NCBI GenBank assembly: GCA_963820525.1
Contig: CAWGAA010000001.1
Location: forward strand, 1,664,001-1,728,000
Direction: 5' to 3'
Origin: an uncultured Spirochaetota bacterium
GTDB lineage: Bacteria; Spirochaetota; Spirochaetia; SZUA-6; Fen-1364
Length of the DNA stretch: 64,000 nt
The notes under the pieces are model-generated. The model saw only the letters and a program-made list of their open reading frames with translations. It did not search any database and had not been told where the DNA came from. Shown piece by piece: positions 2,768-46,406 of this stretch (within the stretch, counting starts at the first letter, position 1; each line of letters begins with the position of its first letter). A program made the position numbers and the translations under genes.

Positions 2768-5062
2768 CTACTCAAGAACCGTGAGGGCGATCTCCTCGCC
2801 CTTCACGTCGGCGATGACCTTCCCTCCACGGGTGAGCTTGCCAAAGAGAATCTCGTCAACGAAGAAGTTCTTGATCTTGTCAGCCACGAGGCGCGCGATC
2901 TGGCGGGCGCCGAACTCCCGGGAATAACCCGCGCGGGCAAGCCACTCACGGGCGGCATCAGTGGCCTCAAGACTCACCCCCTTCTTGGAGAGCTCCGCCT
3001 GGAACTCGCGGATGGCCTTGTCCACCACTTGAAGCACGATGCCGTGGGCAAGGTCGTTGAACTGCACCGTCGCGTCCAGCCTGTTTCGAAACTCCGGGGA
3101 GAAGATGCGCTCCACCGCGTCGGATACCGCATCCTCGCGCACGGAGCGCTCGCCGAACCCGACAAGAGGCTTTCCGATCTCCCGGGCGCCGGCATTGGAT
3201 GTCATGATGAGAACGATGTTCCTGAAGTCCGCCTTCTTGCCGTTGTTGTCGGTAAGGGTGGCGTAGTCCATGATTTGCAGGAGCATGTTGAAGATGTCGG
3301 GATGGGCCTTCTCGATCTCGTCGAGGAGGAGCACCGCGTGAGGGGTCTTTCGAACGGCGTCCGTGAGAAGCCCGCCCTCGTCGTAGCCCACGTATCCCGG
3401 GGGGGCTCCAATGAGGCGCGAGACGGTGTGCCGCTCCTGGTACTCGCTCATGTCGAAGCGCAGGAGGTTCACGCCGAGGATCTCGGCGAGCTGGCGGGCG
3501 AGCTCGGTCTTTCCCACTCCCGTGGGACCGACGAACAAAAGCGAGGCGACCGGCTTGTCCCTCTCTCCGAAGCCCGCGCGGGACTTCTTGATTGCCTTGA
3601 CCACGAGCTCGATGGCCTTGTCCTGGCCGAAGATCCTTCCCTTCAGCTCCCCCTCCAGGCCCTTCAGGCGGGAAAGCTCGTCCGAGGAAACGCTCGCCTC
3701 GGGGATCTTGGCGATGCGGGCCACCACCTTCTCGATGGCCCCGGTGTCCACCGCGTGCCTGCCGTCCTCCATAGGCGCCGTATCCTGCCCATAGACCCGC
3801 ACCCACGAGCCGGCCTCGTCGATAACGTCGATTGCCTTGTCCGGCAGGTGGCGATCGTTGATGAACTTGGCCGAAAGCTCGGCCGCGGCGCGCAGGGCGT
3901 CTTCGGTGTAGTGCACGTCGTGGTACGACTCGTATTTTTCCCTCAAGCCCAGGAGGATCTTGTACGTCTCTTCCGTACTCGGCTCCGAGACCTCGATCTT
4001 CTGGAAGCGCCGGGAAAGGGCGCGATCCTTGTCGAAGTATTTCTTGTACTCCTCATAGGTGGTGGAGCCGATGCAGCGCATCTTTCCCGAGCTGAGAACG
4101 GGCTTCAAGATGTTGGAGGCGTCCATGGAGCCGCCCGACACGGACCCGGCCCCAACCACCGTATGGATCTCGTCAATGAAGAGGATGGCCTTCTCCTGCT
4201 TTTCAAGCTCCTTGATGACCCTCTTCATCCGCTCCTCGAAGTCCCCGCGGAACTTTGTCCCCGCCAGGAGCGCCCCCATATCCAGGGCATAGATGCGGAA
4301 TCCGCGGAGCGCCCGCGGGACCTTTTCGTCCACGATGAGCTGGGCCAGCCCCTCGGTTATGGCAGTCTTACCCACGCCGGCCTCGCCCACATGGATGGGA
4401 TTGTTCTTCAGCCTCCGGCAGAGGACCTGGATGGTGCGCTGGAGGATGTCTTCCCTGCCGATGAGCGGATCGATTCCGCCTTCGCGCGCCTTCCTGGTGA
4501 GCTCCACCGTGTAGGATTCCAGGGCGCGCGCGCTCTTGCGCCGGCCGCGGGCGGCGGGCTGCCCGGCGCCCTCTTCGGCCTGCTCCTCCTCGGCCTCATC
4601 CCCTTCCCCGTCGCCCGGCTCGGAATCCCGCTCGGGGAAGACGGTGACCCCATGGGAGATGTAGGTGAGCAGGGCCAGCCTGTCGATTCCCTGCCGGGCC
4701 AGGAAGTGGGCGGCGAATGATTCCTTCTCGTCGAAGATCGAGACCAGGATGTCGTCGATCTCCACGGTCTGCTTTTCAGCCGAGGCCGTGTGGAGGATTG
4801 CCCTCTCCATGACGGACTGGAAGCCGGCGGATTGGATGGGCTTGGAGCTCTCCGAGGTGGGAACGTGCCCCATGAAGTATTCCTCGATGTCGCGGGTGAG
4901 GGAGCGAACGTCGCCCCCGCATTGGGAGATGATCTCGCGCCCGCGGTCGAAGAAAAGGGAAGCGTACAGGACGTGCTCCGGGGTCAGGTACTCGTGGCTT
5001 CGGGATTCGGCTTCACGGTAGGCGGCGATGATGATCTGATTCAGCTCGTTACTGATGTCCAT
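2768..5062 (-). CDS. clpA: ATP-dependent Clp protease ATP-binding subunit ClpA
   Basis: Clp N domain (HEYLTPEH), two Walker A motifs (GEAGVGKT, GPTGVGKT), DMSEY, no ClpB middle domain, and directly downstream of clpS. Confidence 0.96.
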   Translation of the reverse strand: MDISNELNQIIIAAYREAESRSHEYLTPEHVLYASLFFDRGREIISQCGGDVRSLTRDIEEYFMGHVPTSESSKPIQSAGFQSVMERAILHTASAEKQTVEIDDILVSIFDEKESFAAHFLARQGIDRLALLTYISHGVTVFPERDSEPGDGEGDEAEEEQAEEGAGQPAARGRRKSARALESYTVELTRKAREGGIDPLIGREDILQRTIQVLCRRLKNNPIHVGEAGVGKTAITEGLAQLIVDEKVPRALRGFRIYALDMGALLAGTKFRGDFEERMKRVIKELEKQEKAILFIDEIHTVVGAGSVSGGSMDASNILKPVLSSGKMRCIGSTTYEEYKKYFDKDRALSRRFQKIEVSEPSTEETYKILLGLREKYESYHDVHYTEDALRAAAELSAKFINDRHLPDKAIDVIDEAGSWVRVYGQDTAPMEDGRHAVDTGAIEKVVARIAKIPEASVSSDELSRLKGLEGELKGRIFGQDKAIELVVKAIKKSRAGFGERDKPVASLLFVGPTGVGKTELARQLAEILGVNLLRFDMSEYQERHTVSRLIGAPPGYVGYDEGGLLTDAVRKTPHAVLLLDEIEKAHPDIFNMLLQIMDYATLTDNNGKKADFRNIVLIMTSNAGAREIGKPLVGFGERSVREDAVSDAVERIFSPEFRNRLDATVQFNDLAHGIVLQVVDKAIREFQAELSKKGVSLEATDAAREWLARAGYSREFGARQIARLVADKIKNFFVDEILFGKLTRGGKVIADVKGEEIALTVLE

Positions 5063-5377
5063 TCACGCTTCCTCCGAGGTCGCCTTCAGGGGAAACTCGT
5101 TCTGCCGGGCCATCTCGTGAACCTGGGAAACCTTGGTGGCCGCGATATCGAAGGTATACACTCCCACGACTCCCCTGCCCTTCTTGTGCACATCGAGCAT
5201 GATCTTTGTCGCCTCCGCCGCGGGCTTGTGGAAGACGGCCATGACGACCTGCACGACGAAATCCATCGTGGTGTAGTCGTCGTTGTGCAGGACGACGCGG
5301 TAGAGTTTCGGCTCCTGGAGCCGGGGTTTCTGGCGGACCCCGGTGTCCGCTTCGAAGCTGTCGCGCGTCTTGGCCAT
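5063..5377 (-). CDS. clpS: Clp protease adaptor ClpS
   Basis: YRVVLHNDDYTTMDFVV...MLDVHKKG...EFPL signature. ATG at 5377 has an AAGGA RBS. Confidence 0.96.
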   Translation of the reverse strand: MAKTRDSFEADTGVRQKPRLQEPKLYRVVLHNDDYTTMDFVVQVVMAVFHKPAAEATKIMLDVHKKGRGVVGVYTFDIAATKVSQVHEMARQNEFPLKATSEEA

Positions 5378-5495
5378 GAATGTTTCCTTCATTCAATAAT
5401 ACCAGTTTCGCGCCCCGAGAAACAAGCGGGACGGCCGGTTTTCCCCTGAATTTCGTGGAAATAACGCTCATTTTGATTATACTTTGAGAGAGACC

Positions 5496-6851
5496 ATGGC
5501 GCTTTTATCGAAGTACCTTACTTCTCGACGTGTCGTGTTTCTGCGCAGCCGCAGCAAGGATGGCGCCATCCGGGAGCTCGTGCACGCGCTCTGCGCCACG
5601 ATTCCGGACCTCGACAGCATGCAGATCATCCGCGCCATCCAGGAACGGGAGAGGATGGTGAGCTCGTGGATAGCCCCGGGCGTCGCCATTCCCCACGCGC
5701 GCCTGTCCGGCTGGAACGGGATCGCCGTCGCCGTGGGCAGGAGCCGCAAGGGAATCGCCTTCGACTCCAGCGACGGCAACCCCGTCAACCTCCTCATCCT
5801 CATCGTGAGCGACGACCGCGACCCGGATCAGCATATCCAGCTCCTGGCCGAGATCGCCAGAACGCTTCGGGACCTCGCCCTCAAGCAGCTGGTTCTCACG
5901 GCGCGCACCAGCGACGAGGTGTATCGGCTGCTCATAACGCACGGCTATGGAGAGCCGCGGGGCAAGGCCAAGACGTCACCCAAGGCGCGGGTCTCGCGCC
6001 TGCTCTTCGCGCACGCCCTCTCGGTGGCCGAGGAGGTAAAGGCCAACGCCGTCATGCTGCACTGCGACGCGGTGGGCAGCCTCCGCTTCATGGAGGACAT
6101 TCCCTCGCCCATCCAGCTCATCCTGGTGACCTCGGACCGCGCCACCGTGAAGGAGAACCGGAAGCCGGCTCCCCAGATCCTCCAGGTGCCCTTCCCCAGC
6201 CTGAACCGCTCCAACCAGATGGAGCTTTCCCTCCTCTTTGCGGTCTCGCGCGGCCTTCTTTCCCGCGGCGACACGGTTGTCCATATTTCGGGGGTTCCCA
6301 ACTCGGGGCTTCTCGACACGCTCCTGGTAATCGATGTCGGCCGCGAGTTCCCCTCCATCTTCACCCAGCACACCCCGACTCCCATTGGAGACGTGGAGCC
6401 TCAGGTGCTGGAGAAGATCCTCCAGATCGCAATGGACATCTCCCGGGAAGGAAGGGAGGGAAGGCCGGTCGGAACGCTGTTCGTGATCGGAGATTACGAG
6501 AAGGTCTTGAAGTATTGCCGGCAGATGGTGATCAATCCCTTCCGCGGCTACCGCGAGGAGGAGAAGAACGTCCTGGACCCGAGCCTGGGAGAAACGCTCA
6601 AGGAGTTCTCCACCATCGACGGCGCCTTCATCGTGCGGGGAGATGGAGTGATCATGTCGGCCGGCACGTTCCTCAGGCCCGAGAAAACGACGGTGAACCT
6701 CCCCTCGGGGCTGGGAGCGCGGCACGCTGCGGCCGCCGCCTTGACCGCCATCACGGGCTCGATCGCCGTGGTTGTATCCCAGTCCACGGGCACGCTGAGC
6801 CTCTTCAAGGCAGGGGGCCTCGTCATGGCGCTGGAGCGGCCGAAGATGTAG
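5496..6851 (+). CDS. PTS EIIA (Fru/Ntr-type) domain fused to a CdaZ/DacZ-like diadenylate cyclase
   Basis: N-terminal GVAIPHARL (EIIA phospho-His motif). C-terminal DAC domain with EGREGRPVGTLF, NPF, FSTIDGAFIV (DGA motif), GLGARHAAA and VVSQSTG. Confidence 0.88.
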   Translation: MALLSKYLTSRRVVFLRSRSKDGAIRELVHALCATIPDLDSMQIIRAIQERERMVSSWIAPGVAIPHARLSGWNGIAVAVGRSRKGIAFDSSDGNPVNLLILIVSDDRDPDQHIQLLAEIARTLRDLALKQLVLTARTSDEVYRLLITHGYGEPRGKAKTSPKARVSRLLFAHALSVAEEVKANAVMLHCDAVGSLRFMEDIPSPIQLILVTSDRATVKENRKPAPQILQVPFPSLNRSNQMELSLLFAVSRGLLSRGDTVVHISGVPNSGLLDTLLVIDVGREFPSIFTQHTPTPIGDVEPQVLEKILQIAMDISREGREGRPVGTLFVIGDYEKVLKYCRQMVINPFRGYREEEKNVLDPSLGETLKEFSTIDGAFIVRGDGVIMSAGTFLRPEKTTVNLPSGLGARHAAAAALTAITGSIAVVVSQSTGTLSLFKAGGLVMALERPKM

Positions 6852-34968: not shown

Positions 34969-35850
34969 ATGGGCAATTCCGACGCCGCTTTAGTACTTCT
35001 CGGCACCACCGGCCTCCGCGTCCGCCCCCTCGGCATAGGGACCAACAGGTGGGGCCCCGGCAGGGGCTCCGGCAGGGCTGCCCGCCCGGAGCTCAAGCCT
35101 GTGTTCGACGAGGCTCTTTCATTCGGCCTCACCTTCTTCGACACGGCCGAAGTGTACGGGATGGGCGGATCCGAGCGCACGCTTGGGTACTGCCTAAAAG
35201 CCGCGGGCGGCGATCGAGCTCTCGCCCCCGTGATCGCCACCAAGTTCTTCCCCATGCCGCCCGTCTCCATAGAGACCTGGGCAGACGCACTGGCGGACAC
35301 GGTTGATGCCGGCCTGACGCGCGCCGTGGGGGTTTCGAACCACAATCCTGCCGAGATGCGCAGGGCTCACGCGGCCCTTGCGGCGCGCGGTGTCCCCCTG
35401 GCGTGCAACGAGGTAGAGTACAGCCTGCTCAAGCGGGACGTGGAGAGAAACGGCCTTCTGGCGGCATGCCGGGAGCTTGGCGTGACGCTCATCGCCTATA
35501 GGCCGCTCGCCCTCGGGCTGCTTCCGGGAAAGCACACGTCGGCCAACCCGCCGTCGGGGTGGCGCGGGATGGCCTTCCGCCGGCTGTATCCGCCGGGGAT
35601 CGAACCTCTCGCGGCGCTTCTCACGCGCATTGGCGAGCAGCACGGCGGGAAAACGGTGACGCAGGTCGCCCTCAACTGGGTTATCTGCAAGGGGGCCTTG
35701 CCCATTCCAGGCGCTACCCGAGTTGATCACGTCCGGGAGAACGCCGGAGCCCTCGGCTGGCGGCTGACGGATGAGGAAATCGCCGCTCTCGACGCGGCCG
35801 AGGAACGGCTTCGCGCTTCTATTCGCGACAAGGAGAATCCCGATGCGTAG
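34969..35850 (+). pseudogene. Aldo/keto reductase with an apparent in-frame internal deletion
   Basis: FDTAEVYG, IATK, GVSN, YSLL and PIPG are present. The SLxRLxxDxxDLxxxH segment expected after IATK is missing. Confidence 0.7.
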
Positions 35851-36736
35851 AAATGTCCTGATCCCTGCCCTGGTTTGGGTCCTCGTGCTCGTCGCCACGG
35901 CGAGCGGGCTCTTCTATCGCACGAACGAGCCGCGAATCGGGCACCTGACCGTGCGGGGAGAGCACGCCGTCTTCCAGGGAAGCGGGCTATACCGCTTCGA
36001 TCCGGCCGTTCTCGCCCGTGAAGGGATAATCTGGGACGTGATCAACCTCGCGATCGGCCTGCCCCTGCTCGCCGCCGCAATCTATCTGAGCGCCCGCGGC
36101 TCGCTGCGGGGAAGGCTGCTCCTGGCGGGTCTCCTCTCCTACTTCTTCTACGTCTACCTCATGTATGCAACAATGATGGCGTTCAACCCGCTTTTCATTG
36201 TGTACGTGGCAATCTTCGCCCTGAGCGGGGTCGGCTTTTTCATCAACCTTTCGAGTATCGATGTTGCAGGCCTTCCACAGAAGATGGGCCCCCGCTTTCC
36301 CCGCCGGGTCTTCGCCGTTTTTTCGCTTGTCGTCGGGGCCATGCTGGTCTTCCTATGGATGGGACGGATCGTCCCCATGACCATCTCCAACGCCTTTCCT
36401 CCCGAGCTGGCGGGATTGAGCACCCTCGAGCCCCAGGCACTCGACCTGGGCCTGCTCGTCCCGCTTGCCCTCGCATCGGGGATCCTCCTTCTCCGCCGTT
36501 CACCGTGGGGATACTTCCTTATTGCAGTCATGATCACCCACGGCTTCATGATGTTTATCTCGGTTCCCAGCTGGATCGTCGTGCCGCTGATCCAGGATGG
36601 CGCCGTCAACGCATTCGAAGCGAGCCCATTTCTCCTGGTGAGCCTCCTGGGGCTTTTCCTGACGGTCTGGTTCTACAGAAATGTGCCGGGCAGGTCAGCC
36701 GCCGCGGCGGCGCAGCCGGAGCAACGCAGGATTTGA
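35843..36736 (+). CDS. Hypothetical polytopic membrane protein (about 8 TM)
   Basis: AAGGAG RBS, multiple hydrophobic helices, and QALDLG. Confidence 0.8.
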   Translation: MRRNVLIPALVWVLVLVATASGLFYRTNEPRIGHLTVRGEHAVFQGSGLYRFDPAVLAREGIIWDVINLAIGLPLLAAAIYLSARGSLRGRLLLAGLLSYFFYVYLMYATMMAFNPLFIVYVAIFALSGVGFFINLSSIDVAGLPQKMGPRFPRRVFAVFSLVVGAMLVFLWMGRIVPMTISNAFPPELAGLSTLEPQALDLGLLVPLALASGILLLRRSPWGYFLIAVMITHGFMMFISVPSWIVVPLIQDGAVNAFEASPFLLVSLLGLFLTVWFYRNVPGRSAAAAAQPEQRRI

Positions 36737-36743
36737 ACCGTTC

Positions 36744-37253
36744 CTACGCGATGATCGGTGAGCCGCCCATATAGGGAGGAAGACCTTCGGGGTATCTCCT
36801 GACGAAGCGCTCGTAGTTTGCCTTGTACAGGGGCGTATGCTCGACCCTTTCCAGCCAGAGGATTGCGGCCTCGACGACATCCTCGATGAATACCCGAACG
36901 TCGACGTTCAGGATGTCGAAGATCTTGTTGTTGTGCGGCACGATCCCCGCCATGCCCGGCTCTATGAAGATCACGCGCGACAGCCCGCCGGCTGGAAGAT
37001 GAGTGGTCGCCTGGTGGAGCATCTTGCACCTGACGCGATAGAGATCCCAGCCCGCGAGCAGCGGGGTGCCGCGCACGGAGTACCGCGCGCCGACGTTCTT
37101 GTCGAACCACGCCGCGTATTTTTTGCCGTCCGCTTCGCCGTTGGATGACTCGAGCGCCCCGCAGATATCGGGGACGCAGAGAGCGGAAAACAGCGCAACG
37201 TAGTACAGCCCGGAACGGTTTGCCGCCTGAATCTGGTCCAGCAGGTCTTGCAT
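36744..37253 (-). CDS. Hypothetical protein with HEPN-like Rx4H motif
   Basis: Helical-looking 169-aa protein with ALCVPDICG and LYRVRCKMLHQ. Start site uncertain. Confidence 0.65.
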   Translation of the reverse strand: MQDLLDQIQAANRSGLYYVALFSALCVPDICGALESSNGEADGKKYAAWFDKNVGARYSVRGTPLLAGWDLYRVRCKMLHQATTHLPAGGLSRVIFIEPGMAGIVPHNNKIFDILNVDVRVFIEDVVEAAILWLERVEHTPLYKANYERFVRRYPEGLPPYMGGSPIIA

Positions 37254-37356
37254 CGCGTGCTCGATCCGCGGCCGGGCGCTCGTTGGCATGCCGCCCGGTC
37301 CGGTCAACCCGATTATCGGCAGATCAGGGATAACCTGCTGGCCTTTGCCGGATATT

Positions 37357-38901
37357 TCACGGGGTGGGGATCGGGTACCCCCGTCTGGCAAGCTCGAGGC
37401 GCGCGTGCGCGGTCAGCTGCTTCAAGCCCGATGCCCGGATGAATGCGATGTCCGCCTGGCCCTTCTGGCTGCATCGCTCGAACGAGAGCGCGGCGGAAAC
37501 AAGCCCCTCGCCCGCCCGGGCTTCCTCTCCCCTCGCCTCAGCAAGATCGGCCAGCGCCAGATAGTCGCGCGCGGCCGCTGCATTCTTCGAGAATACCGCT
37601 TCGGGCACGGCCGAGGCCACGGAAGCCCTGTTCATGAGGGCGATCTCCCGCTCGTCGTCCGTCTTTGCCGCGGCGACGGCACGGTCCAGGAGAGCGAAGG
37701 CATCGTTTACAAACATCACGGCAGAGGCCGGCGATCCGGCCCTGCCCCCCTTCATCGCAGTGATCGAGCCAAGGTAGGCAAGCGCGGCAGGGTTCTCCGG
37801 CTCGCGGACCAGCACGCCCCTGAATGTCTTTTCAGCTTCTTCAAGCCTTTCCAGCGAGAAGAGCCCCGCTCCGGCTCGAAGAGGATCCGCCGATGCCGCG
37901 TCAGCCTGAGCGCGTGAACGTGCCGCCGCTTTTTCCACTTCGGCCTGTTTTTTTGCCTCTGCTTCAAGCTTTTCCAGGTCCACCGTTCCTGCCCCGAGAG
38001 CCGGGGTTCCGGGCAGGATAGTCACCGGGCGCAGGGTGGCATACCTGAACGAGGCTTCGTCGTAGGAGCCGAGCTGCGCCTGCTGATCTTCCGCTCTCGG
38101 CGCCAAAACATCGAAAACGCGCGGGGTCAGAGTCGAACGCGCGCCTCCGGCTGAATCGGGTGTGGCGCGGCCATTCACCCGCATGACGTTGTCCACGGCC
38201 AGGGGGTCATACCCGCAGACGAGCACGTAGTGTCTCGTTGGCCTTCCGTCCAGGATGCGCGTGACCTGGGGGACATCCATCGGCAGGCGAACGTAAACGG
38301 TCCTCTGGTCGGGGACCGCAATGATCGGCACGGGACGCTGGATCTTGCCGTCGGCCGTGCGCATGATCGCGCTCGCGTGCCAGCCGTCGATCTCTACCAT
38401 GACGTCCCAGGGCGCCGCCGGATCGAAGGATGCGAGCTCCGCCCTGGGGACCGCCGTCTCCGTGGATCCTGAGCCGCCGCCCGTATCGATATAGATGCGG
38501 ATCGAGCACAGCGAGAAGCCGTTCGGGGCCTGGTGTGGGTTTTCGAACCGCAAGAGCGTCACGGCAAGCTGCCAGAACTGGCGCTGGTCGGACCATGCGG
38601 CGTCGAGCTCGGGCTGGAATACCGTGTATTTGACAAGGTCGAAAATTCCGTGGGCCTGGAACAACGGTCCCCGGGGATAGCCGAGCCGTCCGTCACCGTT
38701 ATCGTCTCCCGTCGGATCATATACCCGCGCCATCTCGGTCCCGCCGTTGAACCTCGGATCCACCTTGAGCTTGAGGAGCGCTTGAAGGCCAGCCGTGATC
38801 GCGGAGCCCGAGAAGATGAATCCGATGGGGATCGAAAAAAAGGAAACGATGGCAATCGCCTTGAGCACTATGTCCATGATCGTTTTCATACTCGACCTCA
38901 T
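37357..38901 (-). CDS. Membrane-anchored glucodextranase-type DOMON domain + TPR protein
   Basis: N-terminal TM helix, DPTGDDNGDG..YP...FDL...NP...PNGFSL..I.IYID DOMON-like pattern, and C-terminal TPRs. ATGA overlap with the upstream gene. Confidence 0.75.
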   Translation of the reverse strand: MRSSMKTIMDIVLKAIAIVSFFSIPIGFIFSGSAITAGLQALLKLKVDPRFNGGTEMARVYDPTGDDNGDGRLGYPRGPLFQAHGIFDLVKYTVFQPELDAAWSDQRQFWQLAVTLLRFENPHQAPNGFSLCSIRIYIDTGGGSGSTETAVPRAELASFDPAAPWDVMVEIDGWHASAIMRTADGKIQRPVPIIAVPDQRTVYVRLPMDVPQVTRILDGRPTRHYVLVCGYDPLAVDNVMRVNGRATPDSAGGARSTLTPRVFDVLAPRAEDQQAQLGSYDEASFRYATLRPVTILPGTPALGAGTVDLEKLEAEAKKQAEVEKAAARSRAQADAASADPLRAGAGLFSLERLEEAEKTFRGVLVREPENPAALAYLGSITAMKGGRAGSPASAVMFVNDAFALLDRAVAAAKTDDEREIALMNRASVASAVPEAVFSKNAAAARDYLALADLAEARGEEARAGEGLVSAALSFERCSQKGQADIAFIRASGLKQLTAHARLELARRGYPIPTP

Positions 38902-40127
38902 ACAAAGAGAAAGGAGCCGGTGGTCAGCAGGTGGAGAAACCGCGCCACGGTTTCCACGGAGAAGGATCCGCAGATGATCATTCCGATGGTGAAGCCGCTT
39001 GTTGTCATGAGGGCTCGAGGCGAGAGCAGCTCCTCGAGTGCCCTGGCAAGCCCGGGGAGGAGCCCGCGCGTCTTTCCGGCGCCGGCCAGTCGCTGACGCC
39101 AGCGGGCGGCCAGCCCCCGCGGCGAGCCGCAGGCGCGCGACCAGGAGAAACGGTAGCCCGCCGCCCCCGTGGGACAGGCGGTGACGCACTCGCCGCATTT
39201 GGTGCAGGTGCGGAGAATCCGCGGGGGATCGGCGGCCATGACGGGGCATTCCTTGGCGCATTTACCGCAGCGCGTGCACAACTTCTCATCGATTCCGACG
39301 CGGTAGGGAGAGACCACGTCAACGAGGGACTGGAACGCGCCAAAGGGGCAGAAGCTCATGCACTGCGTGCGCCGGCGGGTGACGATGGGAAGGATGATCG
39401 CCATTGAAAAGAAAGCGAGCACGAAAAGGATGAAGGCGAAGAAGGTGATGGCGTTCGTCACCTCGGCGTACTCGGTAACGATCTTGAACGGGCACAGCCA
39501 GGTGCAGTACACGCTGGTCATTGTGGCCATGCCGGCCAGGGCCACAAACGCAAGCATGGCGAAGCTGAAGTACCTGACCCTCTTGTTCGGGGCCCGTATC
39601 TCCACCTTCGCGCGCGATGCCAGCCGAGAGGCTCCATCGTCCCACCCGCCGTAGAAGCAGACCCACGAGCACCAGCCGCGGCCGATGGTCAGCGTGGCGA
39701 TGAGCCAGATGGCGATCATGCCGTAGATGGAGGCGAAGTAGTTGGTGAGCTGCCCGGGAAACACGACGACGCCCGAAAGAAGGTACGGGATGATGGCCTG
39801 GGGAATGACGATGTGGCAGAAGGGAGTCTGGCTGAGGAAAGTCTCCGCTTGGGTCAACACCATGGATCCCCGGCTCTCCACAAGCCGCGCGATGAAAGCC
39901 GGTGCGAAGAGCAGGGCCGAGCTTACGAAGAAGATCCTTCGAAACGTGGAGACTCTGCCCGTTCGCTGCAAGGCGACAAACAGGGCCAGAAGAGCCCCGG
40001 CAACGATCCACGCGGCAATCCGCTGTCCGCCGTTGGACATGCCGATGAGAAAAAAGTACTCGAAGAGCGCCATGATGCCGCAGAGCACGACCACGGTCGC
40101 GACTGAAAAACCATCCGTTCGCTTCAC
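38898..40127 (-). CDS. Membrane polyferredoxin (NapH/YccM-like 4Fe-4S binding protein)
   Basis: GRGWCSWVC, YCTWLCP and CMSFCPFG motifs, two ferredoxin motifs (CTRCGKCAKECP, CTKCGECVTACP), and TM helices. Confidence 0.88.
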   Translation of the reverse strand: MKRTDGFSVATVVVLCGIMALFEYFFLIGMSNGGQRIAAWIVAGALLALFVALQRTGRVSTFRRIFFVSSALLFAPAFIARLVESRGSMVLTQAETFLSQTPFCHIVIPQAIIPYLLSGVVVFPGQLTNYFASIYGMIAIWLIATLTIGRGWCSWVCFYGGWDDGASRLASRAKVEIRAPNKRVRYFSFAMLAFVALAGMATMTSVYCTWLCPFKIVTEYAEVTNAITFFAFILFVLAFFSMAIILPIVTRRRTQCMSFCPFGAFQSLVDVVSPYRVGIDEKLCTRCGKCAKECPVMAADPPRILRTCTKCGECVTACPTGAAGYRFSWSRACGSPRGLAARWRQRLAGAGKTRGLLPGLARALEELLSPRALMTTSGFTIGMIICGSFSVETVARFLHLLTTGSFLFV

Positions 40128-40137
40128 GTTTCCCCCC

Positions 40138-40767
40138 TTATGCCGCGCCGGCAAGCCCGATGACCAGCAGGAAATACAGGCCGAGCAGGGTCATCGCGGA
40201 GCGCGCGACAAATCTGAAAACCTCGGATCGGCGCAGCACCGCGGGAAGCCCCAGGAGGGGAACCAGCCAGACGCTCGTTCCGATGAAAAAGAAGATGAAG
40301 TAGCCGGCGCCTGAAAGCGGGCTTGACCCGGCAAACACCCGTGCGGCGGCGGCGAAGAAAGGCGGGCAGATCGACGCCCCGGTGACCAGGCCGAAGAGAA
40401 ACGCGCTCATTCCCGGCCGCCAGAGCCTGCGGGCAATCTCGCATGCCTTGACCCGGGGGAAGGCTTCGGACAGCCCTGCAACGATCATGACGGCCCCGGC
40501 AAGCGAGTAGGAAATCCGCGTCAGGAGGCGCGAGAAGCCGGGATCCACGTACCGCGCAGAATAGGCCCCGATGGCGCCGAGGGCGGCGCCAACCGCGATG
40601 TAGGCGAGGAGACGGCCACCAAGGAAAAGGGCCACCAGGATACCGTTGGCCCGGAACGGCTTTCCGGCTCGCGCCTGCGAGGAGAGGAAAGGGAGGGCCA
40701 CCGGCGCGCACGCCACGGCGCAATACGTCCCAGAGGAAAGCCCAAGGAGAAACGCTTCAATCGGCAT
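40138..40767 (-). CDS. DsbD_2 / TauE-SafE-like membrane protein
   Basis: About 6 TM helices with CAVACAP, GRLLAY, CPPF and FFIGT. Confidence 0.8.
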   Translation of the reverse strand: MPIEAFLLGLSSGTYCAVACAPVALPFLSSQARAGKPFRANGILVALFLGGRLLAYIAVGAALGAIGAYSARYVDPGFSRLLTRISYSLAGAVMIVAGLSEAFPRVKACEIARRLWRPGMSAFLFGLVTGASICPPFFAAAARVFAGSSPLSGAGYFIFFFIGTSVWLVPLLGLPAVLRRSEVFRFVARSAMTLLGLYFLLVIGLAGAA

Positions 40768-40777
40768 TGCAGTCCCC

Positions 40778-41488
40778 CTACTCTTCGAAGTCTTTTAGAA
40801 TCCGCCGCGCCGCGGCTGCCGCCCGGGATTCGGGGGCCGCGCGGATGGCCGCCTCGCACCTGCGCATCGCCTCTGAAGCATCTCCCTTTCCCAGGGCTAC
40901 GCGCGCCTTGAGCAGCTCGACCGAGGCGCGCTCCCCGGCGGAAAGCCGCGCCCTCGATTTCTCTAGCAATGCGAGGTCTTCCGCGGCGACATCCCAGCGC
41001 TTCAACGGAGACTTCGCGCTCACGGACACGGAGTTTTCAGCCCGAAGGAAGCGGAGAACTACCGATTCGGGCGCCAGGTCAACGGCCTCGTCCAGTTTGC
41101 GGGCGCCCTCGTCAAGCTCGACGGCCGCCTGCGCGCCCGCCCCTGTTTGTGCAAGCAGACCGGCATGGAGCATGAGCGCGCTTCCATAATAGGCAAGCGC
41201 CATCGGCTCCTTTCGGGACGCGAGCGGCTTCAGAATAGAGAGCGAGGCCTGCACCCAGCGGCCGGGATCCGACACGGCGAGGTTATGCCGGACGATTCCT
41301 GTGACAAGCGGAAGCAAAGCCGGCGCCTCACGCTCGGCCTTTTGGATCAACTCCTCAGCCTCGGCTTGCGTCCAGCATCCGCCTGCCAGAGCGATGAGGG
41401 CGGATTGATCCAGCGCGCGGTCCTGCGCGCCAGCAAGCGCCGCGCCGAGGCAGCCCAACGCAACAATTATAGATACTCTTATGTTCAT
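40778..41488 (-). CDS. Secreted TPR-like protein
   Basis: Signal peptide, LAYYGSA...LDEAVDLAPE...RFLRA helical repeats, and GGAGG RBS. Confidence 0.75.
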   Translation of the reverse strand: MNIRVSIIVALGCLGAALAGAQDRALDQSALIALAGGCWTQAEAEELIQKAEREAPALLPLVTGIVRHNLAVSDPGRWVQASLSILKPLASRKEPMALAYYGSALMLHAGLLAQTGAGAQAAVELDEGARKLDEAVDLAPESVVLRFLRAENSVSVSAKSPLKRWDVAAEDLALLEKSRARLSAGERASVELLKARVALGKGDASEAMRRCEAAIRAAPESRAAAAARRILKDFEE

Positions 41489-42819
41489 CTGTTCCTCCCG
41501 TTCAAATCGAGCCGCGGGAAATCCGTCACGCTCGTGAAAACGAGCCGGCCGGAGCCCCGCGGATTCCATCCATAGGAAAGAGAGAAGAAAGCGAAGACAG
41601 GGTTGTCGAAGGAGATCTTCAGCCCTATCCCAAAGGCTTCGAGATCCCGCAGCTCTGCGCCGGGAAGAGTCTGGGCAACCGCGGCATCTGCGAAAAGAAA
41701 GGGGGCAAAGGCCAGGGAAATAAAGGAAAACATTCGAAGCGGAGGCAGGACAAAGCCAATCTCAGTGCTCGCCAGGGCAAAGCCCGATACGAACAGATCC
41801 ATGGGTGCGTAGCCGGATCGAACGGAGCGATCGGCCTTTCCCGCAAGGTCGAACAGGCCGTACGCGGGAAGGCCGCCCTTGACGGGAAGCAGGCCGCCAT
41901 AGGAAAGCCTCGCCGCGGCAAACGGCCCGCAGTCATCCGGGGATGAAAGGCGAGTCCAGCCCGAACCTTCAAAGGTCGCGTACGCGCCGCCATCGATAGA
42001 TAGAGAGATGCCCGCTGTATTTTCGGAATACGCCATGAAGCGAAGGGCACGGGAGCGAGACAGGCTTTGCGCGGCCAGGCCGATCCTGGGAACCCACTGA
42101 AGGCCGCCCGTCGTGTCCGGATACTCACCGAGAGCGTGGGACGAGTCGGGCAGGAGCCATCGATACGACAAACGAGAGTCGACAAAGACCAGGATGTCGG
42201 GGCTTATAGAGAAGCCGGCCGCCAAATCCGCGTCGATATCGTGAAAATCCAGAAAACCAGTACCGATCGCATTTGAATAGAAAGCATCGACACGATACGA
42301 AAAAGGCCCTCCCTCAAGAGAATCGTCTTCCCAGGCTAGGCCCGCCAGGTTGTACCCTGCGGTGATGCTCCACGATTCTCTCCGGCCGTCAACATTGTCC
42401 TTGCCCACAGACGCAAAATAGGGGCCGCCGCCGAACCTCCAGAGAAAGCCTTCCTCGAGGCGAACCGTCACCAGCCTGCCGTCAGGCGCGCCCGCAAGGG
42501 GGGTCACGAACACCTCGGCGCTGTAGAAGAAGCCGGAAGCAGCGAGCCTTTCCTGCGCCGCCGCCCTCCTGCCTTCCAGATCCGCGGCGCTCATCGAGTC
42601 GCCGGGAGAGATTCCGAGAAGCGATATTATGGTTTGTGGAGCGGTTATGCCCTCGACCGCGCGAGGGGGAACGGCGGAGCCGCTCGTCCAATCGTAGCGC
42701 AGCTCGCCCACGATCATGCGCACCTTGATCACCATGACGCGCTCCCCCGCGTCTCCCCATGCCGCGGCAGGCGCGATCAGCTTGAGAACCATGGCGATGA
42801 CGAGGATCCTGCGATCCAC
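41485..42819 (-). CDS. Omp85 (BamA/TamA-like) outer-membrane protein with a single POTRA-like domain
   Basis: Signal peptide, POTRA-like RLAASGFFYSAEV...VTVRLEEG, SVRSGY loop motif, and terminal strands FLFAD...AFGIGLKI...LSYGW. Confidence 0.68.
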   Translation of the reverse strand: MDRRILVIAMVLKLIAPAAAWGDAGERVMVIKVRMIVGELRYDWTSGSAVPPRAVEGITAPQTIISLLGISPGDSMSAADLEGRRAAAQERLAASGFFYSAEVFVTPLAGAPDGRLVTVRLEEGFLWRFGGGPYFASVGKDNVDGRRESWSITAGYNLAGLAWEDDSLEGGPFSYRVDAFYSNAIGTGFLDFHDIDADLAAGFSISPDILVFVDSRLSYRWLLPDSSHALGEYPDTTGGLQWVPRIGLAAQSLSRSRALRFMAYSENTAGISLSIDGGAYATFEGSGWTRLSSPDDCGPFAAARLSYGGLLPVKGGLPAYGLFDLAGKADRSVRSGYAPMDLFVSGFALASTEIGFVLPPLRMFSFISLAFAPFLFADAAVAQTLPGAELRDLEAFGIGLKISFDNPVFAFFSLSYGWNPRGSGRLVFTSVTDFPRLDLNGRNR

Positions 42820-42911
42820 GAAAACCCCCTCTGCGCGGAAGATTCGGCGATCCGCCGGTCCGCTTGGGTATCTAACCCCAGGGGGCTCTCGCTGTCTGTC
42901 GGGAGATAGGT

Positions 42912-43870
42912 CTATTTCGAGTCAGCAGGTGTCGGGAAATCGGTTGACAGCGGGCGCGCGGCGAGCATCCGGCCCAATTCGATCTTGTTTCCCGCACCGG
43001 TTTTATCGTAGATGCGGTTCACATGGGTCTTCACGGTGGCCATGGAAACGGAAAGCCTGTCCGCGATCTCCTTGTAGGAAAAGCCCTCCAGGAGAAGAGA
43101 CGCCACTTCACGCTCGCGGGGAGAAAGCTCGAAGCGATCGAAATCCCACTCCCCCTCGGCGGCGGCGGCGGTGTGTCTGAAATATAAAGGAAGAGTATTG
43201 AGGATGTAGATCAGGTTCCAGAGGAGATAGAAGACGGGAAAAGCCCGGAGGGACTTCGGCAATCGATCCGAGAGGGAGGGAAGAAGCTGCGGAAAGAAGT
43301 CGATCAACACGAAAAAAGGGATGAAAGCGGTCGTCAATACCGTGGCTGAGCGCATGATTCGATGCCAGCGGCTCGTTTCCGCCGGCGTGAGATCCCTCCG
43401 CGGCCAAACGCGGAGGAAGATGTTGCCCGCCACAACGGCATACACGATAACGGCGGTCAGAAGGCCGAACTCCACGTTGGCCAGCCATAGGGGGGGGAAC
43501 CCAGGCCGGCCAGGATCACCATGGCATAGGAGGCGAGGCCCAGAGCTGCGAAGATGCGGTTGAGAATCCGCTCGAAACTGAGCGCGGCCATGCTATGAAT
43601 GAAGCGGGGGAGAACCGCGATCATCAGCGACATGCCGGCAAGCTCCACAAAGGAGCTGATCAGGATCATGTTCCCCGCCCAGACTCCCGCGTTCCCCGTG
43701 TACACGTCGAAGGAATTGGAGACCAGGATGATCGTGAAGCTCGCCATGAAGGCGGCATAGCGCCGGTCGATCATGCTCTTTGCAAGAGCGCCCGTCAGAA
43801 CGGCGAAGAGAACCCCGATCCCTCCCACGGAGTAGCAGATGATTTCATAGAGGAAGATCACATGATTCAT
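42912..43870 (-). pseudogene. Membrane-integral LuxR-family regulator split by a frameshift at a C8 tract (43490-43497)
   Basis: An N-terminal TM ORF (43457-43870) and a C-terminal TM+HTH ORF (LSPREREVA...SYKEIA...TVKTHV) join in frame if C8 becomes C9 or C6. Confidence 0.82.
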
Positions 43871-43955: not shown

Positions 43956-46406
43956 TCATTCGTACGTATTGCGCAGGTGGTGGAACGTGAGCGATCCTCG
44001 CAAGTCCTCCAGGCTCACTTTCCGCCGTGGGGTGAAGAAAAGGGAACGCGGCGCCCCATCAAGGAGGGTGAAGCAGTTGTCGTCAAACTCGCCGGGGATT
44101 GCCCCAGTGTCAAGGGAAACGAAGAAGGCCGGCTTGTCCGTCGTAAGACGGACCGTAAACCCGTCCCCGCATTCCTCTGCCTCGACCCGGATCTCGGCTT
44201 TTTCGATTGCGCATCGCTTGTAATCCGCGAAGAAATGCTCGTTGCTGAAGACCTTGCCCTTCTCCGGCGTGTGCTTGAGGAAGAGGAACTCCCTCTCGGG
44301 GGTAGAGGTAAGCTCCTCCTGAGAGAGAACACCGACCAGCTTGGACGACCCGGCGGGAACGCGAGCGCGCAGGCTCCCGCTCGATCCGCGCGACCCGTCG
44401 AAGCCGATCACAGACCACTCCACCGTGCCTTTGGTCTCCTGAAGCGTGTCGTTCACCAGCCATATCTCGATCCCGGCATCCGTGGGGGAGGCTGCCAGGA
44501 GCACGGGGGCGTAGAACCTGGCGGCCGCGTAATGGACCAGCTTCCATTTTCCCCCGTACTCGATGGAGGACCAGGAGCAGACCGGCCAGTTGTCGTTCAG
44601 CTGCCAGTAGAGGGTGCCCATGCACAGCGGCCTGAGATGCCGCCAATGCTCCACGGCAATCTTCATGGCAAGCGCCTGCTGAACCTGGCTTAAATACAGG
44701 AAGCTCTCGAAGCCGCGGGGGAAGCGGAAATAGCGCGTCATCATCTCCGTGATCCGGGCGTTTCCTCCGGGATGGCGCTGGTGGTGCTCCATGATCGGTG
44801 AGCTGATGCTCAGGGAATCTTCCCCGGCGTAGGATTTCACTGTTTCCAAGGAGGGGAAGGACTGGTAGCCGAACTCCGAGCAGAAGCGGGGCGAAACCTC
44901 GCGGTATGCCTGGAAAGGCTTGCCCTCGTGCCAGACGCTCCAGAAGTGCATGTCACCCCGCCTGTCGTCGTGCCAGTTGTCCGAGTAATTGCTGCGCCCG
45001 CCCGACGGCGAGCTTGGCCAGAAGGCGCGCGTTGGGTCGCACTCGTCCACGGCCTTGCCGATGACGCCTTCGTACAGCCTGTCGTAGTCCGCGATGTAGC
45101 GATCCCGGTCCTGCTTGGATTCCGCGTACCAGGACAGGGCCCCGAAGTTCTCGTTGTTTCCGCACCACAGGGCGATGGATGGGTGATCCCTCAGCCTCTT
45201 GATCTGGTGGCGCGCTTCAGCGTCCACCCGGGCAAGGAAATCGGGGACCGCGGGGTACAAGGCGCAGGCGAACATCATATCCTGCCACACGAGCAGGCCC
45301 TTCTCGTCACAGAGGTCGTAGAAGTCCTCGGATTCGTACTGCCCGCCTCCCCAGACGCGCAGCATGTTCATGTGAACCTTCACGCAACTTGAAAGCAGAT
45401 GCTCCACCCGCTCGCGGGTCTGGCGCTGGGGAAGGGCGTCGCAGGGAATCCAGTTGGCCCCCTTGCAGAAGATGTCGATGCCGTTCACCCGAAAGACCAT
45501 GGATGCGCCCACTCTGTCCGTTCGGGTAACCAGCTCGAGCGTTCGAAGCCCGATCCTCTTCGTCACCGAGTGGCCGCTAAGACGGACCTCCAAGTCGTAG
45601 AGAGGCTGTTCACCGAATCCATTGGGCCACCAGAGCCGCGGGTTTTCCACGGTAATGTCCACTGACAGCCGGCGTGGACCGGCGTCGAGCTTCACTTTTT
45701 TTTCGACCTTCTGTCCGCAGAAGCTCACGGAAAGCTCATACTCAGAGGAGCGGAATGCCCGGCACTCGACAAAGACCCGCATGCGGCAGCGGCCCGCCGC
45801 ATGCTTCTGCTCCGTGTACACGTATTCAATGCGCACGGCGGATGTGGCCTCGAGGCGGATGCCGCCATAGATCCCCGCCACCATGAGGCAGGGGCCCCAG
45901 TCCCAACCCGAATGGCATTGGACCTTGCGCACGAGGTTCCTGTGTGGGGAGTCCACGGGAAATCGCGTATGCGGAACCGGATAGGGCAGGCCGCCTGCCG
46001 CTTTCGCCGCTTCCCGTTCAGCGGAATGAAAGAGAATGCGTATGGCGTTTTTACCCGGCCGGAGGTGCGGCTTGGCGTCGAAGCAAAAGCGGGTAAACAT
46101 ATTGTCAGCGCGGCCCAGGAGCTTTCCATTGAAGAAGACCTCCGCCACGGTGTCCAGTGAATCGCAGACCAGGAGGACCGCATCCTGGGAGAGGATCTCA
46201 TCCTCGACCATAAAGTCGCGCTCCCAGGCCCAATCCTCCCTGCCGACCCACTGCACGGCGAGCTCATTCGTTCCCCCGAACGGGTCTGGAATCACCCCCG
46301 CGGCGAGCAGGGCCGAATGGGTATCTCCGGGCACGCGGGCGGGCACGGTATCCCCCGTGGCGATGCGGACCAGCCGCCAATCTCCCCGCAGATCAAGGAT
46401 TTTCAA
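43956..46406 (-). CDS. Beta-mannosidase (GH2)
   Basis: GWDWGP, KGANWIP, NMLRVWGGG, WCGNNE and FCSEFGYQS. Confidence 0.94.
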   Translation of the reverse strand: MKILDLRGDWRLVRIATGDTVPARVPGDTHSALLAAGVIPDPFGGTNELAVQWVGREDWAWERDFMVEDEILSQDAVLLVCDSLDTVAEVFFNGKLLGRADNMFTRFCFDAKPHLRPGKNAIRILFHSAEREAAKAAGGLPYPVPHTRFPVDSPHRNLVRKVQCHSGWDWGPCLMVAGIYGGIRLEATSAVRIEYVYTEQKHAAGRCRMRVFVECRAFRSSEYELSVSFCGQKVEKKVKLDAGPRRLSVDITVENPRLWWPNGFGEQPLYDLEVRLSGHSVTKRIGLRTLELVTRTDRVGASMVFRVNGIDIFCKGANWIPCDALPQRQTRERVEHLLSSCVKVHMNMLRVWGGGQYESEDFYDLCDEKGLLVWQDMMFACALYPAVPDFLARVDAEARHQIKRLRDHPSIALWCGNNENFGALSWYAESKQDRDRYIADYDRLYEGVIGKAVDECDPTRAFWPSSPSGGRSNYSDNWHDDRRGDMHFWSVWHEGKPFQAYREVSPRFCSEFGYQSFPSLETVKSYAGEDSLSISSPIMEHHQRHPGGNARITEMMTRYFRFPRGFESFLYLSQVQQALAMKIAVEHWRHLRPLCMGTLYWQLNDNWPVCSWSSIEYGGKWKLVHYAAARFYAPVLLAASPTDAGIEIWLVNDTLQETKGTVEWSVIGFDGSRGSSGSLRARVPAGSSKLVGVLSQEELTSTPEREFLFLKHTPEKGKVFSNEHFFADYKRCAIEKAEIRVEAEECGDGFTVRLTTDKPAFFVSLDTGAIPGEFDDNCFTLLDGAPRSLFFTPRRKVSLEDLRGSLTFHHLRNTYE

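Follow-up and report, generated by a model that had tools for sequence, protein, structure and literature searches.

A conserved spirochaete gene module linking a polyferredoxin and DsbD_2-family membrane pair to TPR proteins and an Omp85-like barrel

A stretch of 64,000 nucleotides (nt) from the genome of an uncultured Spirochaetota bacterium (GCA_963820525.1, contig CAWGAA010000001.1, positions 1,664,001 to 1,728,000; this whole stretch is called the window, and positions follow its numbering unless a locus is named) carries at 37357-43870 a five-gene operon behind a regulator gene, with all real genes of this segment on the minus strand. The operon encodes an Omp85-like outer-membrane barrel, a small exported tetratricopeptide repeat (TPR) protein, a DsbD_2-family membrane protein, a polyferredoxin resembling NapH and CcoG, and a membrane-anchored protein in which a DOMON-like domain of the Glucodextran_C family is joined to TPRs (here called the DOMON protein). 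Here, we describe the gene content, gene order, conservation, folds and invariant residues of this module, which we rate as a kind of system not yet described, with a function that we infer. We regard the module, with high probability, as a functional unit that is real and conserved. In our preferred reading, to which we give a probability of about 0.4, an iron-sulfur and cysteine relay, scaffolded towards a dedicated Omp85 protein, carries either reductant or a thiophilic substrate in reduced form through the inner membrane.

The genes are tightly packed. The regulator gene (42912..43870) is separated by a spacer of 92 nt from the barrel gene (41485..42819), whose stop codon overlaps the start of the small TPR gene (40778..41488) by 4 nt in an ATGA at 41485-41488. 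A gap of 10 nt leads to the DsbD_2 gene (40138..40767), and another 10 nt separate it from the polyferredoxin gene (38898..40127) if the latter starts at the GTG at 40127, the likely start, which stands behind a GGGGGGA stretch; the alternative start, a TTG at 40154, would give an overlap of 17 nt with the DsbD_2 gene. The gene of the DOMON protein (37357..38889) follows after 8 nt, its start, the ATG at 38889, being placed by orthologues and by the anchor helix. A G-rich stretch like a ribosome-binding site can be read ahead of the start codon at each junction. An open reading frame (ORF) of 634 amino acids (aa) at 37357-39261 was rejected as a gene, as it is an over-extension into the polyferredoxin gene. 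No gene for a catalytic oxidoreductase subunit is found in the window locus or in 10 orthologous loci. An earlier note on this DNA, made from the sequence alone, had described the five co-oriented genes, the upstream membrane LuxR regulator, the lack of a catalytic subunit and the fusion of a membrane-anchored, glucodextranase-type DOMON domain to TPRs, and all of this is borne out by the present analysis.

The gene set recurs in other genomes, a point on which the earlier note had made its reading depend. In an even sample of 401 Spirochaetota genomes, an orthologue of the DOMON protein is present at E<=1e-30 in 11, including the genome of the window (G000), and these belong to at least six families. 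The 10 foreign loci were fetched and mapped by tblastn and ORF calling. Seven of them (L032-L038) contain all five genes in the order of the window, L039 contains four, with the barrel gene elsewhere in the same genome, and L040 and L041 contain only the DsbD_2, polyferredoxin and DOMON genes, with no barrel found in either genome; the small TPR gene is present in 8 of the 10. Protein identity to the window is 25-52%, and the G+C content of the fetched loci is 24-54%, compared to 62% in the window. On either side lie unrelated housekeeping genes (PolA, AspRS, fucose isomerase, and others). The best match (G140) is of the same phylum, and the genomes of the same class (f9) are the most distant; this mismatch between kinship and similarity points, along with the patchiness of the distribution, to transfer or repeated loss. 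When 5.8 billion protein clusters were searched with word-indexed profiles, a type of search that misses distant relatives, there were 13 matches for the DOMON protein and 10 for the barrel, and a HMMER profile of the DOMON protein run over 1.84 billion representatives gave 139 at E<=1e-30, with about 60 of the 150 matches listed covering the protein from the anchor to the TPR end in one stretch. The 40 nearest relatives of the bacterium gave only partial matches to the Glucodextran_C domain and no orthologue, and among the matches listed for the DOMON-protein alignment against genome and metagenome contigs there were only distant Glucodextran_C proteins without the other genes. The few named relatives are labelled Spirochaetia or Spirochaetota. 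The module is self-contained and was found here only in spirochaetes.

Judged by conservation, the polyferredoxin and the DsbD_2 protein are the invariant core of the module, and the pair recurs in four other gene contexts with invariant cysteines. The polyferredoxin matches Fer4 (E 2.7e-12) and, in three stretches, Fer4_5. It consists of an N-terminal helical bundle, a P-x-C-H motif, three CX3C pairs (C162/C166, C217/C221, and C265/C269, numbered from the TTG start), two CxxCxxCxxxC motifs for [4Fe-4S] clusters and a C-terminal helix, and 15 cysteines as well as the P-x-C-H motif are invariant across the close and the distant sets of homologues. The DsbD_2 protein matches PF13386 over residues 5-180 (E 1.5e-18; 67.9 bits, cut-off 24.9) and has two cysteines in the first helix (C16-x3-C20-x-P), a third at C109 and a fourth in the fourth helix (C134-P-P). 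These are invariant in 11 orthologues, except for C109, which is kept in 10 of the 11, and all four are invariant in eight sequences that include four distant pairs. The polyferredoxin scores 57.9 bits (E 1e-15) with the NapH model TIGR02163, which has a cut-off of 213.05, 55.8 bits with NF007013 (cut-off 234), and 29 bits with the CcoG model TIGR02745 (cut-off 316.7). Its matches to solved chains are confined to the ferredoxin part, and a profile search against PDB sequences found no solved relative of the DsbD_2 protein. Longer, fused forms of the DsbD_2 protein were not found either, by a search that counts as weak evidence.

The polyferredoxin profile matches 19 of the 401 Spirochaetota genomes at E<=1e-40 and 14 at E<=1e-158. 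At 13 of the 14 close loci a DsbD_2 gene is adjacent, and the remaining one (L072) ends at a contig edge; the DOMON gene is also adjacent in 13 of the 14 and was not found in L066. The polyferredoxin gene of L066 carries a stop codon. More distant homologues (E 1e-58 to 1e-114) were found in five further genomes and at a second place in G321. All four distant places that were fetched (L068-L071) have an adjacent DsbD_2 gene, in other gene company. In L068 the pair lies behind a hemerythrin gene; in L069 its neighbors are a DOMON gene and the genes of a histidine kinase and a sigma-54 regulator. In G256 (L070 4661-11199) and on contig 5 of G321 (L071 4396-10935), the pair is flanked on one side by a Memo-AMMECR1 fusion gene and on the other by genes for a spermine-synthase-like membrane protein and a radical SAM enzyme, a set which we take to resemble 'AmmeMemoRadiSam'. 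In three low-G+C g68 loci, the DsbD_2 and polyferredoxin genes are separated by one that encodes an Rce1-like (CPBP) intramembrane protease (L035 6891-7724; L036 7266-8090; L037 5896-6717). In the 251 genomes of the phylum of an Ignavibacteria metagenome-assembled genome no close polyferredoxin was found at E<=1e-35, a weak result as this search lacked a positive control.

The DOMON protein is a bitopic inner-membrane protein with a well-defined predicted fold. It matches Glucodextran_C (PF09985) with an E-value of 2.6e-39 and 135.5 bits (cut-off 22). An AlphaFold2 (AF2) model built on 73 sequences (predicted local distance difference test score, pLDDT, 93.8; predicted template modeling score, pTM, 0.87) has a long N-terminal helix, a beta-sandwich and eleven helices, the sandwich comprising residues ~42-293 and the TPR domain residues ~305-502. 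The sandwich aligns by VIA-align with residues 744-1020 of glucodextranase 1ulv_A (Z 24.9, root-mean-square deviation 2.6 Å over 224 residues, 25% identity), Foldseek returned glucodextranase 1ug9 (E 1e-11) as the sole match at E<=0.001, and a D-x3-DD-x-G-x-G motif region is common to the protein and the C-terminal domain of glucodextranase. The helical half (residues 320-510) matches TPR chains, including PilF, PilW, and YfgM, at Z 10-13, a level that is common for helical repeats, and the anchored domain reaches E 2.9e-4 with consensus-TPR profiles. Glucodextran_C domains resemble carbohydrate-binding module family 9, and kinetic data suggest that they help to recognize alpha-glucan, while the same source notes that sugar binding by these domains is yet to be demonstrated (PMC10074034). 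Other Glucodextran_C domains of this genome (G000:C3:527128-527529, L002) and of its relatives (L003-L009) lie in open frames of ~1,000-1,080 aa, which may be large glycoside hydrolases.

The small TPR protein, which has a signal peptide with an N-terminal hydrophobic segment and ~215 mature residues, is by sequence paralogous to the TPR domain that ends the DOMON protein. In hhalign the two proteins align over 179 columns with a probability of 96.5% and E 8.6e-10, and the motifs AYxGS and R/N...VP/SP...F.K/R...D are common to the small protein and the helical half of the DOMON protein. No Pfam family matches the protein; similarity to consensus TPR chains (E 3.9e-9) is seen in its last repeat. 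BamD was considered and rejected as its identity, as BamD/YfiO 3qky is reached only at E 0.92. Every orthologue ends in E-E or E-D, and it may be speculated that this acidic tail docks into a TPR groove.

The barrel protein has a signal peptide, and its AF2 model, built on 14 family members (pLDDT 85.0, pTM 0.80), shows the signal-peptide helix, one POTRA unit at residues ~40-123 and 16 strands, which DSSP places between residues 127 and 431. Of the 117 PDB matches that Foldseek gave at E<=0.001, BamA and TamA rank first, with E-values of 1.3e-13 to 2.7e-13, a probability of 1.0 and template modeling scores, normalized to the query, of 0.49-0.62. The Omp85-like barrel proposed in the earlier note is confirmed by this fold. 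POTRA is recognized by Pfam in 11 of the 14 family members (best E 4.2e-5) and only below threshold in the window protein (E 8.6e-4). PF01103 (Omp85) is not reached, with weak matches in 3 of the 14 members (best E 0.0053) and none in the window protein, so that membership in Omp85 rests on fold and motifs; a barrel profile run against PDB sequences found BamA only at E 0.79. The loop-6 motif of Omp85 proteins is (V/I)RG(F/Y). In the model, a long loop before strand 12 (residues 315-345) carries VRSGY, or VRxxx, of which R334 is invariant in the 14 sequences, and most family members end in G-F. In a protein atlas, the nearest named clusters are BamA/TamA and the nearest unnamed ones occur most often in Spirochaetota. 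This rare family has one named match among the 10 mentioned above, and it comes from a spirochaete. Fold and motifs indicate that the barrel is a divergent one-POTRA member of the Omp85 superfamily.

The regulator has a GerE-type helix-turn-helix (HTH) domain (PF00196, E 2.7e-15; 56.1 bits, cut-off 23.5) of the LuxR type, and its N-terminal part consists of about six hydrophobic helices, not of a receiver or autoinducer domain. In this assembly the gene is split by a 1-nt frameshift into ORFs at 43457-43870 and 42912-43475, beside a run of eight G at 43490-43497 (plus strand). In contigs from two other wetland runs (X2 and X5, ~98-99% alike), an additional A follows 43497 and the gene becomes a single ORF of 319 aa, as in the orthologues, where single ORFs of 297-347 aa are found. 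In view of these contigs, the break stems either from misassembly at the homopolymer or from a lesion particular to this strain. X1, the run that most resembles the window, lacks a contig across 43342-43583 and so does not cover the frameshift, and the regulator stretch is not contained in any run recorded as RNA. A membrane-LuxR regulator of the window type adjoins the operon, upstream or downstream, in 5 of the 10 fetched loci. The type of regulator differs between lineages: in L067 a three-gene form of the operon is followed by genes for a LytTR regulator and a DUF3021 membrane protein (4983-5859; Pfam), and in L069 the adjacent genes encode a histidine kinase and a sigma-54 regulator. Two ORFs of 145 and 149 aa, the sizes seen in L067, come after the DOMON gene in L041 (11011-11887).

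Quinone and haem markers were searched in five host genomes that are 89-99% complete (G000, G140, G131, G345, and G178), each pathway being represented by a single marker gene. MenA exceeded its cut-off in none of the five, in a search that was positive in 9 of 14 known genomes, and HemH was found in none, with a control positive in 8 of 14; G000 has a sub-threshold UbiA-type match (94.7 bits, cut-off 102.15). These absences are suggestive and make a quinol-fed NapH-type protein and a haem-b DOMON domain unlikely.

Taken together, the data lead us to propose the following mechanism, in which the direction of electron flow, the contacts between the proteins and the substrate are our suggestions. 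The polyferredoxin would take up electrons on the cytoplasmic side through its two [4Fe-4S] clusters, the likely donor being a soluble one such as ferredoxin and not quinol, and would hand them to its membrane-proximal sites, the three CX3C pairs and P-x-C-H. The four-cysteine DsbD_2 protein would form the path across the membrane. It may act as a thiol/disulfide shuttle, like CcdA, or it may carry a reduced thiophilic ion, the role proposed for HMA-DsbD_2 copper proteins supplied by a reductase of the CcoG type, and we lean slightly towards this soft-metal version. The earlier note had assumed electron movement by a DsbD-like protein; the DsbD_2 family was confirmed, but its members need not move electrons, and metal transport is equally conceivable because proteins with HMA and DsbD_2 domains are members of a copper-responsive CsoR regulon in gut Firmicutes (PMC4938975). 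The anchored DOMON protein beside the core would serve as a scaffold, with a sandwich that may hold a glycan or a partner protein and a TPR platform, and the soluble TPR paralogue and the one-POTRA barrel would extend the module to the outer membrane in most lineages. Two observations speak for the scaffold reading: the small and the anchored TPR parts are paralogous, and the genes are translationally packed. Expression would be controlled by the membrane-embedded regulator, which is of the LuxR type in the window.

Several observations weigh against this proposal. There is no conserved cysteine in the DOMON, small TPR or barrel proteins, and neither the periplasmic proteins nor the barrel have a motif rich in Cys, His or Met that could accept electrons or metal. 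None of the loci encodes a thioredoxin-like protein (the wider genomes were not part of this search), a metallochaperone, a P-type ATPase or a metal-sensing regulator. For the polyferredoxin helices before the first CX3C motif, a simple count based on hydropathy and the positive-inside rule yields a contradictory membrane topology. The role assigned to the Omp85 barrel is the weakest part of the proposal, and no cargo gene is conserved nearby. The barrel gene is absent from 3 of the 10 loci and disrupted in 2 of the 7 that carry it, so that it is absent, unlinked or broken in 5 of the 11 genomes with the DOMON protein: none was found in genomes G178 and G300, G049 has it away from the operon, G226 has a frameshift in it (L033 5579-6873) with the other four genes intact, and in G321 (C14:113341-114666, L034/L050) it has two TAG and one TAA in frame, the remaining four operon genes being intact and a second barrel relative of 412 aa lying on contig 9. 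The single machine spanning both membranes that the earlier note had envisaged can therefore only be inferred, whereas a conserved envelope module with an inner-membrane part that delivers reductant is still the best reading.

A rival explanation, which we regard as unlikely, is that two separate functions share one operon, with the polyferredoxin, DsbD_2 and DOMON proteins as one unit and a BamA/BamD-like barrel and TPR pair as the other, without any trans-envelope complex. It would account for the lack of the barrel and small TPR genes in the g24 loci, for the unlinked and broken barrel genes just described and for the presence of the redox pair in wholly different contexts, and an Omp85 protein with a TPR partner, as in BamA/BamD, is the core of the general BAM machine. 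However, the order of barrel, small TPR and inner-membrane genes is kept, overlapping or nearly abutting, in 7 of the 10 loci across a G+C range of 25-62% (window included), the paralogy of the small TPR protein is specifically with the anchored TPR domain, BamD being no relative, and the barrel family is rare, with its one named match from a spirochaete and its nearest unnamed atlas clusters mostly from Spirochaetota. A module that senses, exports or modifies a glycan or a glycosylated surface component, the link favored by the earlier note, seems decidedly unlikely: the DOMON domain would bind sugar, the TPRs and the barrel would export it in the manner of synthase-dependent polysaccharide secretion, and the redox pair would modify or gate the process. 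The close structural relation of the sandwich to the glucodextranase domain (Z 24.9; PF09985 E 2.6e-39), the kinetic hints of alpha-glucan recognition (PMC10074034) and the other Glucodextran_C proteins of ~1,000 residues in this genome and its relatives speak in its favor, as do the secretion-associated PilF and PilW among the TPR matches and a gene for a glycoside hydrolase family 2 (GH2) mannosidase, identified by its Pfam domains, upstream in the window (43956-46406). But this mannosidase has no counterpart in any of the 10 orthologous loci and was for that reason rejected as a member of the system, conservation in the loci does not extend to any glycosyltransferase, polymerase, flippase or other sugar enzyme, and the same source says that Glucodextran_C domains have yet to be shown to bind sugar (PMC10074034). 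The glycan link is weak for a further reason, namely that the invariant core is the redox pair, which is also present without the DOMON protein. Polysaccharide porins known to us are not Omp85 barrels, which also counts against it.

At the bold end stands a redox-driven trans-envelope machine, in which the inner-membrane relay would act through two paralogous TPR domains, serving as a bridge, to power or gate a dedicated Omp85 translocon; we consider this very unlikely. Outer-membrane processes are energized by the proton gradient in the case of TonB and Tol and by ATP in the case of Lpt and Lol. In such a machine the pair could be a general 'reductant socket' in the membranes of anaerobes, as it also occurs inside the Memo-AMMECR1-radical SAM clusters. 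It is highly unlikely that the module is a sensor of redox state or envelope stress, with the iron-sulfur and cysteine pair reporting to the adjacent regulator and the periplasmic parts as input modules. A membrane-embedded or envelope-linked regulator indeed adjoins the module in many loci (the LuxR type in the window and 5 of the 10 loci, LytTR with DUF3021 in L067, kinase and sigma-54 regulator in L069), but the structural genes persist while the type of regulator changes, a pattern that fits a regulated effector rather than a sensor. In addition, L036, L037, L038, and L040 have no adjacent regulator within the fetched range, and an outer-membrane barrel would be unexpected in a sensor. Extremely improbable is a respiratory role, either as a NapH-type quinol dehydrogenase or as a conduit to a b-type cytochrome formed by a haem DOMON domain, in a chain for anaerobic respiration or extracellular electron transfer. 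NapH/MauN and NapH are the best named matches of the polyferredoxin (E 1e-15), and H220 of the DOMON protein is kept without exception in 17 sequences and almost without exception in 73. Cellobiose dehydrogenase and ethylbenzene dehydrogenase bind haem b through domains of the DOMON superfamily, and haem-binding DOMON/EB_dh domains use Met/His or Met/Lys as the axial ligand pair. No invariant Met or Lys is available as a second axial ligand in the DOMON protein, however, the NapH models are missed by a wide margin, neither NapG, NapA nor another catalytic subunit is encoded in any locus, and in none of the five hosts examined did MenA exceed its cut-off or was HemH found. A haem DOMON is further disfavored because the sole strong structural match of the sandwich is the non-haem glucodextranase domain; no haem DOMON structure is among the structural matches listed, a statement that leaves room for families outside that list.

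Around the operon, the G+C content of the locus (0.58-0.65) equals that of its surroundings. Downstream lies an ORF of 215 aa (36744-37391, minus strand) with no Pfam family and no counterpart in the 10 orthologous loci, followed by a convergent ORF (35771-36736, plus strand) for a multi-pass membrane protein of 321 aa with a weak LNT_N match. Simple scans for promoters and terminators were at chance level (2 found with 1.4 expected, and 9 with 7.9 expected, respectively), and Rfam gave no match in the window.

Spirochaete envelopes are not well understood, and partners are known for few of the outer-membrane systems in them. The present operon ties a rare Omp85 barrel genetically to an iron-sulfur and cysteine membrane pair and to TPR scaffolds. 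If these parts cooperate, they would provide a new route by which reducing power or reduced metal reaches the envelope of anaerobes that lack quinones and haem, and if the redox-driven machine were true, it would be a new way to energize an outer-membrane machine, by electrons. The conserved pair also gives orphan families, including the unexplained Memo/AMMECR1/radical SAM system, a testable partner.

The combination matched no characterized system, in keeping with the earlier note: a description of the gene set was found neither in NCBIfam, nor among solved structures, nor in the open-access literature searched, and four of the five operon proteins have no NCBIfam model. Among known systems, several resemble its parts. 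The primary paper on CcoG (FixG/RdxA) as a cupric reductase is reportedly that of Marckmann et al. from 2019. CcoG and the polyferredoxin are both integral membrane proteins with CX3C-type motifs beside helices (Fer4_5) and a ferredoxin domain with two [4Fe-4S] motifs, both lack a catalytic partner subunit, and in both the membrane iron-sulfur part is teamed with a periplasmic beta-sandwich. CcoG, a membrane protein resembling NapH, contains two [4Fe-4S] clusters as well as two copper sites and reduces Cu(II), and it has a periplasmic Ig-like domain whose role is unknown and which is missing from its relative YccM (PMC7558416). In contrast, the polyferredoxin has three CX3C pairs, an additional N-terminal bundle with P-x-C-H and a C-terminal helix; this single helix after the ferredoxin domain ends the chain, which has no Ig-like domain. 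Its periplasmic sandwich comes from the next gene and belongs to a different fold family (Glucodextran_C with TPR), it is always paired with a DsbD_2 protein, and its hosts are anaerobic-type spirochaetes. NapH/MauN is the best-scoring named family, and residues 138-336 of the polyferredoxin align with residues 61-252 of NapH, including the CX3C and both ferredoxin motifs, but the score is far below the cut-off and no NapG or NapAB is encoded in the window locus or the 10 orthologous loci.

The DsbD_2 protein resembles CcdA and DsbD as a small membrane protein of this family in which the first and the fourth helix each have a Cys followed by Pro. Thiol-disulfide transporters of the CcdA/DsbD type have a single redox cysteine in each of two symmetry-related helices, an arrangement that C20-x-P and C134-P-P would fit, and a periplasmic acceptor with a thioredoxin fold. 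In CcdA, two membrane cysteines pass on the reducing equivalents, whereas the operon protein has four that are invariant. Unlike in CcdA and the HMA-DsbD_2 proteins, there is no thioredoxin-like acceptor, HMA domain or chaperone nearby, and the presumed electron donor would be a membrane polyferredoxin instead of a cytoplasmic thioredoxin. The barrel shares with BamA and TamA the 16 strands, a POTRA domain, a VRGY-like loop motif and, in most members, a C-terminal aromatic residue, and as with BamA/BamD it goes together with a TPR protein, encoded by the neighboring gene. POTRA domains number five in Escherichia coli BamA and three in TamA, but only one in the operon barrel, which has 433-491 residues. 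Its TPR partner is not BamD-like in sequence and has a membrane-anchored paralogue, and the rarity and patchy distribution of the barrel family argue that it is not the housekeeping BAM. The C-terminal domain of glucodextranase (1ulv/1ug9) has the same fold as the DOMON sandwich, which is not part of a glycoside hydrolase here and is instead fused to an inner-membrane anchor helix and TPRs. The parts of the module all come from known superfamilies, namely Omp85, TPR, DsbD_2, NapH-like polyferredoxins, DOMON-like domains, and LuxR.

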